From the IMG/VR virus record IMGVR_UViG_2663763159_000004: a stretch of 4,770 nucleotides of DNA, one strand, 5' to 3'. Shown one piece after another: positions 1-4,770 of this stretch. The notes beneath the pieces were generated by a model. The model worked only from the letters and a program-made list of their open reading frames with translations, made no database searches and was not told the DNA's origin. The position numbers and the translations under genes were made by a program. Each line of letters begins with the position of its first letter. The stretch's first letter is position 1. Origin of the DNA: a virus. Lineage: Duplodnaviria > Heunggongvirae > Uroviricota > Caudoviricetes.

Positions 1-119
1 AGAGGTACACCGACAAGCGGCATCGACGCACACACTCCCTCTGGCGTCACCGGGCATGGCACGCATCTGCCTTTACGGGGATTTACAACGATTTGGCCGC
101 CGCATCGACCTTCGAGTGA
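1..119 (+). CDS. K: Probable 3' end of tail tip assembly protein K (5'-truncated by the window edge), overlapping the start of I
   Basis: Frame 3 is open from the window edge to TGA at 117-119 (translation ...AFTGIYNDLAAASTFE*). In lambda, K and I overlap by about 100 nt in different frames; here the lambda-equivalent I start (about nt 14-17) to this stop is about 106 nt, the same geometry. The I-J spacer (60 nt) also matches lambda exactly. Identity inferred from synteny and overlap geometry, not from recognising the K sequence itself. Confidence 0.45.
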   Translation, partial: RYTDKRHRRTHSLWRHRAWHASAFTGIYNDLAAASTFE

Positions 120-664
120 AAACGGGGTCCGAAGCCATCCGGGCGCTGGCCATGCAGATCCCGGCGTTTCGTCAGAAACTGAGCGACGGCTGGTACCAGG
201 TACGCATTGCCGGGCGTGATGCAGGTGAAACCGAATTGTCTGCCCGTCTTAATGAGCCGCTGGCAAATGGTGCCGTGATCCACATCGTGCCGCGTCTGGC
301 GGGAGCTAAAAGTGGCGGTGTGTTTCAGGTGGTGCTGGGGGCGGCGCTGATTGCGGTGGCATGGTGGAACCCTGTGGGCTGGCTGGGTGCCGCGGCTGTA
401 TCGGGCATGTATGCGGCAGGGGCCAGTATGATCCTGGGCGGAGTGGCGCAGATGCTGGCACCGAAAGCCAGGACGCCCACGGCAGCAAGTACAGATAACG
501 GCAAACAGAACACCTATTTCTCCTCACTGGATAACATGGTTGCCCAGGGCAATGTTCTGCCCGTTCTGTACGGTGAAATGCGCGTGGGGTCGCGGGTGGT
601 CTCTCAGGAGATCAGCACGGCAGACGAAGGGGATGGTGGTCAGGTTGTGGTGATTGGTCGCTGA
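56..664 (+). CDS. I: Tail assembly protein I (lambda gpI family); start uncertain, frame open upstream to the window edge
   Basis: 202-aa ORF from ATG 56 to TGA 662-664. Translation (MARICLYGDLQRFGRRIDLRVKTG...KQNTYFSSLDNMVAQGNVLPVLYGEMRVGSRVVSQEISTADEGDGGQVVVIGR) matches my recollection of lambda gpI nearly residue for residue at both ends. Lies immediately upstream of J, as in lambda. The reading frame continues upstream of ATG 56 (..QAASTHTLPLASPG-MAR..) with no stop, so the true start may be upstream or outside the window. Confidence 0.85.
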   Translation: MARICLYGDLQRFGRRIDLRVKTGSEAIRALAMQIPAFRQKLSDGWYQVRIAGRDAGETELSARLNEPLANGAVIHIVPRLAGAKSGGVFQVVLGAALIAVAWWNPVGWLGAAAVSGMYAAGASMILGGVAQMLAPKARTPTAASTDNGKQNTYFSSLDNMVAQGNVLPVLYGEMRVGSRVVSQEISTADEGDGGQVVVIGR

Positions 665-682
665 TGAAAAACGTTTTATGTG

Positions 683-702
683 AAACCGCCTCCGGGCGGT
701 TT
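683..702 (+). promoter_or_regulatory. Perfect 8-bp hairpin with a 4-nt loop in the I-J intergenic spacer; possible attenuator or translational-control element
   Basis: AAACCGCC (683-690), loop TCCG (691-694), GGCGGTTT (695-702): the arms are exact reverse complements. It is followed by an interrupted T-rich tract TGTCGTTT (703-710). It sits 19 nt after the I stop and ends 10 nt before the J Shine-Dalgarno. I recall a near-identical hairpin at the same place in lambda. Confidence 0.4.
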
Positions 703-724
703 TGTCGTTTATGGAGCGTTAGGA

Positions 725-3700
725 ATGGGTAAAGGCAGCAGTAAGGGGCATACTCCGCGCGAAGCGAAGGACAACCTGAAGTCCACGCAGTTGCTGAGTG
801 TGATCGATGCCATCAGCGAAGGGCCGGTTGAAGGTCCGGTGGATGGATTAAAAAGCGTGCTGCTGAACAGTACGCCAGTGCTGGACACTGAGGGGAATAC
901 CAACATCTCCGGCGTCACGGTGGTGTTCCGGGCCGGTGAGCAGGAGCAAACACCGCCGGAGGGATTTGAATCCTCCGGCTCCGAGACGGTGCTGGGTACG
1001 GAAGTGAAATACGACACGCCGATCACCCGGACCATCACGTCGGCAAACATTGACCGACTGCGTTTTACCTTCGGCGTGCAGGCACTGGTGGAAACCACCT
1101 CAAAGGGGGACAGGAATCCGTCGGAAGTCCGCCTGCTGGTTCAGATACAACGTAACGGTGGCTGGGTGACGGAAAAAGACATCACCATTAAAGGCAAAAC
1201 CACCTCACAGTATCTGGCCTCGGTGGTGGTGGGTAACCTGCCGCCGCGCCCGTTCAATATCCGGATGCGCAGGATGACGCCGGACAGCACCACAGACCAG
1301 CTGCAGAACAAAACGCTCTGGTCGTCATACACCGAAATCATCGATGTGAAACAGTGCTACCCGAACACGGCACTGGTCGGCGTACAGGTGGATTCGGAGC
1401 AGTTCGGCAGCCAGCAGGTGAGCCGTAATTATCATCTTCGCGGGCGCATTCTGCAGGTGCCGTCGAACTATAACCCGCAGACGCGGCAATACAGCGGTAT
1501 CTGGGACGGAACGTTAAAACCGGCATACAGCAACAACATGGCCTGGTGTCTGTGGGATATGCTGACCCATCCGCGCTACGGCATGGGGAAACGTCTTGGT
1601 GCGGCGGATGTGGATAAATGGGCGCTGTATGTCATCGGCCAGAATTGCGACCAGTCGGTGCCGGACGGCTTTGGCGGCACGGAGCCGCGCATCACCTGTA
1701 ACGCTTACCTGACCACACAGCGCAAGGCGTGGGATGTGCTCAGTGATTTCTGCTCGGCGATGCGCTGTATGCCGGTATGGAACGGGCAGACGCTGACGTT
1801 CGTGCAGGACCGACAGTCGGATAAGGTGTGGACCTATAACCGCAGTAATGTGGTGATGCCGGATGATGGCGCGCCGTTCCGCTACAGCTTCAGCGCCCTG
1901 AAGGACCGCCATAATGCCGTTGAGGTGAACTGGATTGACCCGAACAACGGCTGGGAGACGGCGACAGAGCTTGTGGAGGACACGCAGGCCATTGCCCGTT
2001 ACGGTCGTAACGTCACGAAGATGGATGCTTTTGGCTGTACCAGCCGGGGGCAGGCACATCGCGCCGGGCTGTGGCTGATTAAAACAGAACTGCTGGAAAC
2101 GCAGACCGTGGACTTCAGCGTGGGTGCCGAAGGGCTTCGCCATGTACCGGGCGATGTCATTGAAATCTGCGATGATGACTATGCCGGTATCAGCACCGGT
2201 GGGCGCGTGCTGGCGGTAAACAGCCAGACCCGGACGCTGACGCTCGACCGTGAAATCACGCTGCCATCTTCCGGCACCACGCTGATAAGCCTGGTTGACG
2301 GGCAGGGGAGTCCGGTCAGCGTGGAGGTTCAGTCCGTCACCGACGGCGTGAAGGTAAAAGTGAGCCGTGTTCCTGACGGTGTTGCTGAATACAGCGTATG
2401 GGGGCTGAAGCTGCCGACGCTGCGCCAGCGACTGTTCCGCTGCGTGAGTATCCGTGAGAACGACGACGGCACGTATGCCATCACCGCCGTGCAGCATGTG
2501 CCGGAAAAAGAGGCCATCGTGGATAACGGGGCGCACTTTGACGGCGACCAGAGCAGCACGGTGAATGGTGTCACGCCGCCAGCGGTGCAGCACCTGACTG
2601 CCGAAGTCACCGCAGACAGCGGGGAATATCAGGTGCTGGCGCGATGGGACACACCGAAGGTGGTGAAGGGCGTGAGCTTCCTGCTCCGTCTGACCGTGAC
2701 AGCGGATGACGGCAGTGAGCGGCTGGTCAGCACGGCCCGGACGACGGAAACCACTTACCGCTTCACACAACTGGCTCTGGGGAACTACAGGCTGACAGTC
2801 CGGGCAGTAAATGCGTGGGGGCAGCAGGGCGATCCGGCGTCGGTATCGTTCCGGATTGCCGCACCGGCAGCGCCGTCGCGGATTGAGCTGACGCCGGGCT
2901 ATTTTCAGATAACTGCCACGCCGCATCTTGCGGTTTATGATCCGACGGTACAGTTTGAGTTCTGGTTTTCGGAAACGCGGATTACCGATATCAGGCAGGT
3001 TGAAACCACAGCCCGCTACCTTGGCGCGGGGCTGTACTGGATAGCCGCCAGTATCAATATCAAACCGGGCCATGATTATTACTTTTATATCCGCAGTGTG
3101 AACACCGTTGGCAAATCGGCATTCGTGGAGGCCGTCGGTCGGGCGAGCGATGATGCGGAAGGTTACCTGGATTTTTTCAAAGGAGAGATAGGGAAAACAC
3201 ACCTGGCTCAGGAGCTGTGGACGCAGATTGATAACGGTCAGCTTGCGCCTGACCTGGCTGAAATCAGGACGTCCATTACGGATGTCAGCAATGAAATCAC
3301 GCAGACCGTCAATAAGAAACTGGAAGACCAGAGTGCGGCAATTCAGCAGATACAGAAGGTTCAGGTTGATACAAATAATAACCTGAACAGCATGTGGGCT
3401 GTGAAGCTGCAGCAGATGCAGGACGGACGCCTTTATATCGCGGGTATTGGTGCCGGTATTGAGAACACCCCTGACGGCATGCAGAGTCAGGTGCTGCTGG
3501 CGGCAGACAGGATTGCGATGATTAATCCTGCGAATGGCAACACAAAGCCGATGTTTGTTGGGCAGGGCGATCAGATATTCATGAACGACGTGTTCCTGAA
3601 ACGCCTGACGGCTCCCACCATTACCAGCGGCGGTAATCCTCCGGTATTTTCCCTGACACCGGACGGGCGGCTGACGGCGAAAAATGCCGATATCAGCGGT

Positions 3701-4204
3701 AACGTGAATGCGAACTCCGGTACGCTCAACAACGTTACGATAAATGAAAACTGTCAGATTAAAGGGAAACTGTCAGCCAACCAGATTGAAGGCGATCTCG
3801 TTAAAACAGTGGGCAAAGCTTTCCCCCGTGACTCCCGTGCACCGGAACGGTGGCCATCAGGGACCATTACCGTCAGGGTTTATGACGATCAGCCGTTTGA
3901 CCGGCAGATTGTTATTCCGGCGGTGGCATTCAGCGGCGCTAAACATGAGAGAGAGCATACTGATATTTACTCCTCATGCCGTCTGATAGTACGAAAAAAC
4001 GGTGCTGAAATTTATAACCGAACGGCTCTGGATAATACGCTGATATATACGGGTGTTATTGATATGCCTGCAGGCAGTGGTGTAATGACACTGGAATTTT
4101 CTGTATCGGCATGGCTGGTAAATGGCTGGTATCCCACAGCAAGTATCAGCGATTTGCTGGTTGTGGTGATGAAGAAAGCCACTGCAGGCATCACGATTAG
4201 CTGA
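725..4204 (+). CDS. J: Host specificity protein J / central tail fibre (tail tip attachment protein, lambda gpJ family), 1159 aa, with a divergent C-terminal receptor-binding region
   Basis: Long ORF ending at TGA 4202-4204. ATG 725 gives the N-terminus [34 protein letters not shown]..., which matches lambda gpJ as I recall it, and GGAG at 713-716 is a Shine-Dalgarno 8 nt upstream. The ORF track starts at a GTG at 680, which lies inside the hairpin and has no SD, so I prefer 725. Residues 1 to about 820 (through ...[18 protein letters not shown]) read as near-identical to lambda J; the rest diverges apart from one conserved block ([24 protein letters not shown]). Confidence 0.95.
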
Positions 4205-4222: not shown

Positions 4223-4250
4223 GGGCGCCAGAAATGGCGCCTTTTTTATT
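4223..4250 (+). terminator. Rho-independent terminator downstream of J (end of the late/tail operon)
   Basis: GGGCGCC (4223-4229), loop AGAAAT (4230-4235), GGCGCC (4236-4241): a GC-rich 6-7 bp stem, followed directly by TTTTTT (4242-4247) and ATT. It starts 19 nt after the J stop codon. Confidence 0.7.
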
Positions 4251-4271: not shown

Positions 4272-4770
4272 ATGCGTAAATTATGTGCTGTTATTTTGTC
4301 CGCAGTAGTCTGGCAGGTCGCCGCTGCTACGCCAGCGAGTGCAGCAGAACATCAGTCCACGCTGAGCGCGGGGTATCTCCATGCCTCGACGAACGTTCCC
4401 GGTAGTGATGATCTGAACGGGATTAACGTGAAATACCGTTATGAGTTTACGGACGCGCTGGGGCTGATTACGTCCTTCAGTTATGCCAATGCTGAGGATG
4501 AGCAAAAAACGCGCTACAGCGATACCCGCTGGCATGAAGATTCCGTGCGTAACCGCTGGTTCAGCGTGATGGCGGGGCCGTCTGTACGCGTGAATGAATG
4601 GTTCAGCGCGTATGCGATGGCGGGTGTGGCTTACAGCCGTGTATCGACTTTCTCCGGGGATTATCTCCGCGTAACTGACAACAAGGGGAAAACGCACGAT
4701 GTGCTGACCGGAAGTGATGACGGTCGCCACAGCAACACGTCTCTGGCGTGGGGGGCTGGCGTGCAGTTTA
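4272..4770 (+). CDS. lom: Lom outer membrane protein (Ail/Lom/OmpX family beta-barrel; lysogenic-conversion moron), 3'-truncated by the window edge
   Basis: ATG at 4272-4274 with SD GAGAGG (4261-4266) 5 nt upstream. The frame is open to the window end. Translation MRKLCAVILSAVVWQVAAATPASA|AEHQSTLSAGYLHASTNVPGSDDLNGINVKYRYEFTD...RWHEDSVRNRWFSVMAGPSVRVNEWFSAYAMAGVAYSRVSTFSGDYLRVTDNKGKTHDVLTGSDDGRHSNTSLAWGAGVQF closely matches lambda Lom as I recall it. It has an N-terminal signal peptide with an AxA cleavage motif and sits directly after J, as in lambda. Confidence 0.9.
   Translation, partial: MRKLCAVILSAVVWQVAAATPASAAEHQSTLSAGYLHASTNVPGSDDLNGINVKYRYEFTDALGLITSFSYANAEDEQKTRYSDTRWHEDSVRNRWFSVMAGPSVRVNEWFSAYAMAGVAYSRVSTFSGDYLRVTDNKGKTHDVLTGSDDGRHSNTSLAWGAGVQF

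Follow-up and report, generated by a model that had tools for sequence, protein, structure and literature searches.

The tip attachment protein J encoded in the window, the 4,770-nucleotide stretch of tailed-phage DNA analysed here (IMG/VR record IMGVR_UViG_2663763159_000004), is most probably an OmpC-binding J that makes no use of LamB, as judged from its sequence and from published tests of a close relative. The homology and fold of its distal receptor-binding domain (RBD), the allele class to which this RBD belongs, the prevalence of that class and an identity of ~97% to a tested, OmpC-dependent chimera are established. A preliminary description, made from the sequence alone, had predicted a receptor other than LamB, and this is also the best prediction from our analysis, given that the nearly identical chimera, 1A2, depends on OmpC and works in lamB-deleted cells.

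The J gene lies at 725..4204 on the + strand and encodes 1159 aa followed by a stop codon. Its start was assigned to the ATG at 725, matching lambda and the RefSeq annotation, and the GTG at nt 680 was regarded as a mere upstream extension of the open reading frame (ORF). Six Pfam gpJ families (FNIII-A_GpJ, Phage-tail_3, Ig_J, Ig_J_second, Phage_Tail_Tip and Ig_GpJ_C) were found above curated cut-offs across aa 86-1159, indicating a complete gpJ domain set, and a phmmer comparison with lambda J (8iyk) gave E=0. The genes are ordered as tape measure, M, L, K, I, J and Ail/Lom, that is, as in a lambdoid tail cluster (K-I-J-lom). J is thus a lambda-type tip attachment protein, since the domain set and the gene position both fit. 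Furthermore, the full length of J, the presence of all gpJ domains and the K-I-J-lom order in a complete-looking prophage support the reading that the distal region is the RBD of an intact J. The peptide quoted in the preliminary description is the exact C-terminus of J (ORF 680/725..4204, +); the start given there, 3790, does not coincide with the start of a codon. In that peptide, the codon for K1027 starts at nt 3803, and the domain itself (IEGD...) begins at aa 1021, nt 3785.

Upstream of J, the gene for the tail assembly protein gpI was located at 56..664 (+; Pfam Lambda_tail_I, E=1.5e-23). Its product is 77% identical to lambda I, with conserved N- and C-terminal parts and a replaced central hydrophobic part. 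The lambda-type ATG at nt 17-19, which is ATG in lambda and in the closest chromosomal copy of the locus (NZ_CP033884.1), is GCG in the window, and a third base difference from that copy near the gpI start was found at nt 23. Given the loss of this ATG, gpI would start at the first in-frame ATG, nt 56, and would be 13 aa shorter. Note that the differences at nt 17-23 also fall in the 3' end of gene K, which overlaps. Between J and lom, a terminator-like hairpin and T-run at 4223..4250 (+; hairpin 4223-4242) comprises an 8-bp stem, in which 6 of the pairs are GC, and then TTTTTATT. The gene for an Ail/Lom-family outer-membrane protein then occupies 4272..4770 (+; Pfam Ail_Lom, E=7.7e-103) and continues beyond the window end. 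Its identity is only 35% to lambda Lom, against 86% to its homologues in phages 434 and Chlobot, so that the non-lambda stretch extends past the end of J.

We compared J with lambda J (NC_001416) by scoring identity per 50-aa bin. Identity was 94-100% per bin up to aa 750 and 86% at aa 751-800, then fell to 50% (801-850) and 28% (851-900), rose to 60% (901-950) and 94% (951-1000), and was 56%, 46% and 30% in the successive bins past aa 1000 to the end. At the DNA level, nt 1-3190 of the window showed 92% identity to lambda by blastn, and no blastn match to lambda DNA was obtained after nt 3765. As judged by these alignments, J is a three-part mosaic. The first part, aa 1-820 (725..3184, +), comprises the lambda-like hub and FNIII/Ig domains and has ~98% aa identity to lambda J. 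The second, aa 821-1020 (3185..3784, +), is a straight fibre of the phi21 type, consisting of an alpha-helical shaft and a beta-prism, and was assigned from per-bin identities to phi21 and Chlobot: in 20-aa bins over aa 826-1025, J was 80-100% identical to phi21 and 90-100% identical to Chlobot. Compared with lambda, this shaft and prism are 10-50% identical at aa 826-925 and 90% identical by aa 946-1005, and the helical shaft is 28 aa longer in the window J. The third part, aa 1021-1159 (3785..4201, +), is the distal Ig-like RBD, which was assigned to the allele class of 1A2 and O157 prophages from Pfam, the structural model and alignments.

The divergence of the last ~135 residues from lambda J, pointed out in the preliminary description, was borne out: identity was ~40% over aa 1021-1159 and the drop was sharply local, with 39.9% identity for the last 133 aa by tblastn. 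On the other hand, the placing of the module start at about aa 1020 has to be corrected, because the non-lambda segment already begins at aa ~821 (nt ~3185); on these comparisons the recombined module is ~340 aa long, not ~135 aa. The described AT-richness of the J end was confirmed, the GC content being 0.448 in the last 250 nt, 0.489 in the RBD and 0.589 in aa 1-820, with GC3 of 0.46 in the distal stretch versus 0.71 in aa 1-820. The RBD of lambda has a GC content of 0.557 (GC3 0.63), and those of phi21, 434 and Chlobot have ~0.47. That the specificity region of J is replaced as a module has been documented before (Maddamsetti et al. 2018), lambda J 960-1132 behaving as an independently recombining module (PMC6646904).

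The distal region was matched by the Pfam family Ig_GpJ_C ('Tip attachment protein J, C-terminal receptor binding domain') over aa 1029-1159 with E=1.2e-36, C-terminal to all the other gpJ domains. Modelled with AlphaFold2 from an alignment of 37 sequences, aa 1010-1159 formed an all-beta sandwich with a pLDDT of 81, and the best Foldseek matches of the RBD model were 9wcb, 9wca, 8xck and 8xcj, with TM scores of 0.81-0.84. According to the PDB titles, 9wcb is an open A8 gpJ 713 with OmpC from E. coli EDL933 and 9wca is the closed A8 gpJ; 8xck and 8xcj are the lambda fibre in the closed and LamB-bound states, respectively. A literature search for a paper on 9wca/9wcb (A8 gpJ-OmpC) found none, and the A8-OmpC states are known here by their PDB titles. 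By sequence match and model, the distal region is a homologous Ig-like gpJ receptor-binding domain in a diverged allele. The distal domain had been described as replaced, which holds in so far as the allele differs from that of lambda (41% identity) and fails in so far as it is a diverged Ig-like homologue. A non-homologous domain replacement was ruled out by the Ig_GpJ_C match (E=1e-36) together with the matching fold. Likewise, the description of 'only scattered motifs' shared with lambda is right for WPSGT, FDRQIV and DMPAG, which are conserved islands, but the whole domain is 40% identical and has the same fold.

The search for the nearest characterised RBD led to gpJ 1A2, a lambda chimera. 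Brödel et al. (Nature 2024; PMC11338833) swapped the C-terminus of lambda J from residue 964 for the C-termini of natural prophage J proteins, and scored delivery into lamB-deleted, ompC-deleted K-12 carrying plasmid-borne ompC alleles. In these tests, chimera A8 used both MG1655 and EDL933 OmpC, and chimera 1A2 entered via EDL933 OmpC, not via MG1655 (K-12) OmpC (PMC11338833). Delivery by 1A2 was efficient on 20 of 23 OmpC variants and failed on G1, G2 and G40 (PMC11338833 source data). An anti-STEC therapeutic candidate likewise carries 1A2 as its tail tip (STEC preprint). The 1A2 allele class has thus already been receptor-tested and put to use in engineered particles for delivery (Brödel et al. 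2024; STEC preprint), and the expectation of 'uncharacterised specificity' in the preliminary description was not upheld: a near-identical tip has been functionally tested and therapeutically used, and the sister class, A8, has cryo-EM structures with and without OmpC.

The supplementary DNA of 'GpJ 1A2' is recoded and was read from the machine-read text of a PDF that contains indels and leaves 7 RBD residues unread, and the window RBD (aa 1021-1159) was compared with it by a frameshift-aware protein-to-DNA alignment. Among the 132 cleanly framed RBD codons, 123 were identical (~97% identity), and 5 of the 9 mismatches sit in visibly corrupt text with an in-frame stop or adjacent indels. The robust differences, from window to 1A2, are R1076K, S1118H, V1120H and G1134N, and T1109 is ambiguous (S or T). 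The 1A2 C-terminal segment and the window RBD are thus nearly identical, and they differ at the class's variable positions 1076, 1118, 1120 and 1134. Just upstream of the RBD, aa 1011-1013 read QIK in the window versus RVL in 1A2. For natural 1A2-like proteins, P0005 among them, the identity is 95%. Note that identities to 1A2 of 47-57% from a naive three-frame tblastn were set aside as misleading, because they were caused by the indels in the machine-read DNA.

LamB use was weighed against this comparison. It is very unlikely that the RBD still uses LamB, alone or natively, in the manner of phi21 with its non-lambda RBD. Phi21 is reported to be a LamB specialist, a single I1025T at the prism-RBD junction adding OmpC; residue 1025 is Leu in both the window and 1A2. 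The RBD of phi21 is 47% identical to that of lambda and yet 81% identical to that of OmpC-binding A8, and because a LamB user lies so near an OmpC binder in sequence, class is no strict predictor of receptor. In addition, the shaft and prism of the window J are of the phi21 type (80-100% identity per 20-aa bin), which also favours LamB. However, the window RBD is 61% identical to phi21 versus 97% to 1A2, and 1A2 was scored in lamB-deleted recipients, where its delivery depended on the supplied ompC allele. No high identity to a LamB-using J emerged, in keeping with the preliminary description: we found 41% to lambda J 993-1132 and just 61% to phi21 J 1021-1160.

The differences from 1A2 were then placed on the structural model, in which aa 1032-1045, 1076-1079 (plus one isolated break at 1071), 1102-1104, 1115-1118 and 1132-1143 lie outside strands. 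Loop 1 (aa 1032-1045; 3818..3859, +), non-strand in the model, aligns with the lambda residue-1012 hot spot. The loop 2 region (aa 1071-1079, GAKHEREHT; 3935..3961, +) includes a short strand at 1072-1075 in the model and is hypervariable in the class; its R1076, which is K in 1A2, corresponds to lambda V1048 in the alignment. Loop 3 (aa 1102-1104, LDN; 4028..4036, +) aligns with the region of the lambda 1077-1078 indel hot spot. In the PAGSGV segment (aa 1115-1120; 4067..4084, +), S1118 and V1120 are both H in 1A2, and loop 4 (aa 1132-1143; 4118..4153, +) contains G1134, which is N in 1A2 and aligns with lambda D1107. Strand alternation in the model suggests that PAGSGV is probably a top (fibre-side) loop, and from strand alternation we also infer which of the window loops, including loop 1, would face the receptor. 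In lambda, positions 1012, 1048-49, 1077-78 and 1107 of J are indel and diversification hot spots (Maddamsetti et al. 2018; PMC6646904), residues 1012 and 1107 are required for the laboratory shift to OmpF (PMC6646904), and four bottom loops of the RBD, L1-L4, insert into LamB (Ge and Wang; PMC11101478).

Natural members of the class vary mostly in three segments, HEREHTD, PAGSGVM and AWLVNGWYP, and the window departs from 1A2 in exactly these. Note that the homologous proteins compared for loop variation are mostly C-terminal fragments with few full-length J proteins, a set unsuited to allele frequencies. That the 4-5 differences from 1A2 lie in the most variable segments of the class would count against the OmpC reading. 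Accordingly placed substitutions could in principle have retargeted this sub-allele to OmpF, OmpX, BtuB or a similar protein, or made it multi-receptor, which we consider unlikely. R1076 and G1134 do align with the lambda receptor-shift hot spots 1048 and 1107, phi21 and lambda gain OmpC or OmpF by one to four substitutions, and the J of Salmonella Gifsy-1 binds three outer-membrane proteins, OmpC, OmpX and BtuB. However, SGV, NG and the variable positions 1076-1080 recur in many natural class members, and OmpC itself is hypervariable in its loops. Since the loop variants are recurrent and the OmpC loops hypervariable, tuning at the allele level within OmpC is the simpler reading.

OmpC use by the exact sub-allele of the window, and the OmpC alleles that it accepts, are what we infer from these comparisons. 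Because few residues can change a receptor, as in phi21 I1025T and in the three receptors of Gifsy-1, we hold OmpC use to be highly probable and stop short of certainty, and we regard it as possible, though doubtful, that the 4-5 substitutions relative to 1A2 give this sub-allele a measurably different receptor range. If they did, the sub-allele might accept OmpC alleles that 1A2 rejects (K-12-type G1/G2, or G40); alternatively, it might be adapted to the OmpC of its own lysogen, which is of the 2xe2 type, or use a second porin. It would then be a natural case of loop-level retargeting inside one RBD class.

If J binds OmpC, the trimeric RBD at the tail tip would dock on the trimeric porin OmpC, not on LamB, and the distal RBD loops would insert into the extracellular face of OmpC. 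Binding would trigger a closed-to-open change of the fibre, as in lambda-LamB and A8-OmpC, in which the RBD base would spread, the prism twist, the shaft flip and the tail tip open, leading to DNA ejection. This opening mechanism is borrowed from the lambda-LamB structures, where LamB binding opens the RBD base and the change propagates up the fibre (PMC11101478), and from the fact that A8-OmpC structures exist in both states, closed and open.

The prevalence of the allele class was examined by megablast with nt 3790-4204 as the query. The RBD allele was matched in 58 phage records, including PhiR46_1 (96.4% nt identity), VT1-Sakai, PPompW prophages, many Stx2a phages and the infant-gut phage 2G7b. 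Furthermore, 3,371 of 5,426 complete E. coli genomes (62%) matched the allele class over 80% or more of the query; nt identity was typically 88-97%, and the median was two copies per genome. The 1A2-class tip is arguably the most frequent J tip among E. coli prophages. At the protein level, the RBDs of VT1-Sakai and many Stx phages are ~96% identical to that of the window. The exact window RBD sequence was present in just five records. PhiR46_1, which was propagated on ECOR13, agrees with the window in the loop variants SGV and NG and differs from it in aa 1021-1159 by only L1025I, R1076Q, E1077D and T1157S; going by this comparison, the sub-allele type of the window occurs in a viable phage. 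The sole paper found on the PhiR series, a preprint on the SNIPE nuclease that used PhiR46/PhiR55 phages, is without outer-membrane receptor data. The RBD of engineered A8 gpJ (9wca/9wcb) has the same sequence as the last 140 residues of J from phage Chlobot (PP925838.1), and this phage is thus a natural deposited source for that OmpC-binding domain. A literature search for the phages Chlobot and HannyBb gave no papers, and Chlobot does not belong to the BASEL phages.

Over its whole length, the window has 99.9% identity to prophages in the chromosomes of several clinical E. coli, for example NZ_CP033884.1, in which RefSeq places J at exactly the corresponding coordinates. This closest copy (NZ_CP033884.1 3796224-3840993, locus 25023-28827) belongs to a prophage beside ybhB-bioA in which head genes of the HK97 type are combined with lambda-type tail genes. 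Downstream of lom, the side-tail-fibre region is annotated as several fragments or pseudogenes, and given these fragmented genes, the prophage may not form fully wild-type particles. The OmpC of the same lysogen (NZ_CP033884.1, extracted-locus 43079-44173, - strand) has 100% identity to the clinical OmpC variant of PDB 2xe2. Several of its extracellular loops differ from those of K-12 OmpC, one of the differences being a deletion of 3 aa, and by score it is about equally distant from the EDL933 and K-12 OmpC chains and identical to neither.

It is very unlikely that J is a decaying remnant of a defective prophage whose C-terminus has no current function. The side-tail-fibre genes annotated as fragments in the closest genome copy and the lost lambda-type start codon of gpI in the window both speak for decay, but J has an intact ORF of 1159 aa and every domain, and its aa 1-820 are 98% identical to lambda. 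Lambda PaPa, moreover, is without functional side fibres. Near-identical RBDs are also carried by the plaque-forming phages PhiR46_1, 2G7b and VT1-Sakai, which argues against a remnant and for a J that probably serves in OmpC recognition.

For annotation, these results mean that 'gpJ' in E. coli prophages is not to be equated with 'LamB binder', the OmpC-type 1A2 class being the majority. Natural sub-alleles that differ at few variable positions offer a ready panel for matching RBD residues to OmpC alleles, and such a panel would be useful when choosing tail tips for phage-based delivery.

Among known systems, lambda gpJ (8xck, 8xcj) shares with the window J a homologous Ig-like RBD whose distal loops contact the porin, probably the trigger mechanism, and aa 1-820 at 98% identity; it differs in its RBD (41% identical), its LamB receptor, a shaft that is 28 aa shorter and a GC-richer RBD. 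The J of 434, a classical OmpC user, is similarly a lambda-type J with a swapped C-terminal RBD and is followed by an Ail/Lom gene 86% identical to that of the window; however, its RBD is 40% identical to the window's and has larger loop insertions. Phi21 J (OL657228) resembles the window J in shaft and prism (80-100% per 20-aa bin) and in length (1160 versus 1159 aa), whereas its RBD is 61% identical and LamB is its native receptor. A8 gpJ (9wca, 9wcb) has the same fold (TM 0.81-0.82) and domain order, and Chlobot, which carries the A8 RBD, is 90-100% identical per 20-aa bin in shaft and prism; OmpC binding is that of A8. Its RBD, however, is 58% identical, with indels in loops 1 and 2, and K-12 OmpC is accepted by A8 but rejected by the tested 1A2 tip. 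The sister class to which A8 belongs has already been solved bound to OmpC. Closest of all in its RBD is gpJ 1A2 (97%, OmpC), whose allele is also carried by O157 prophages such as VT1-Sakai. It agrees with the window J in RBD allele class, length, L1025, conserved framework and location at the end of a lambda-type J, and differs in that the chimera keeps the lambda shaft whereas the window J has a phi21-type shaft.
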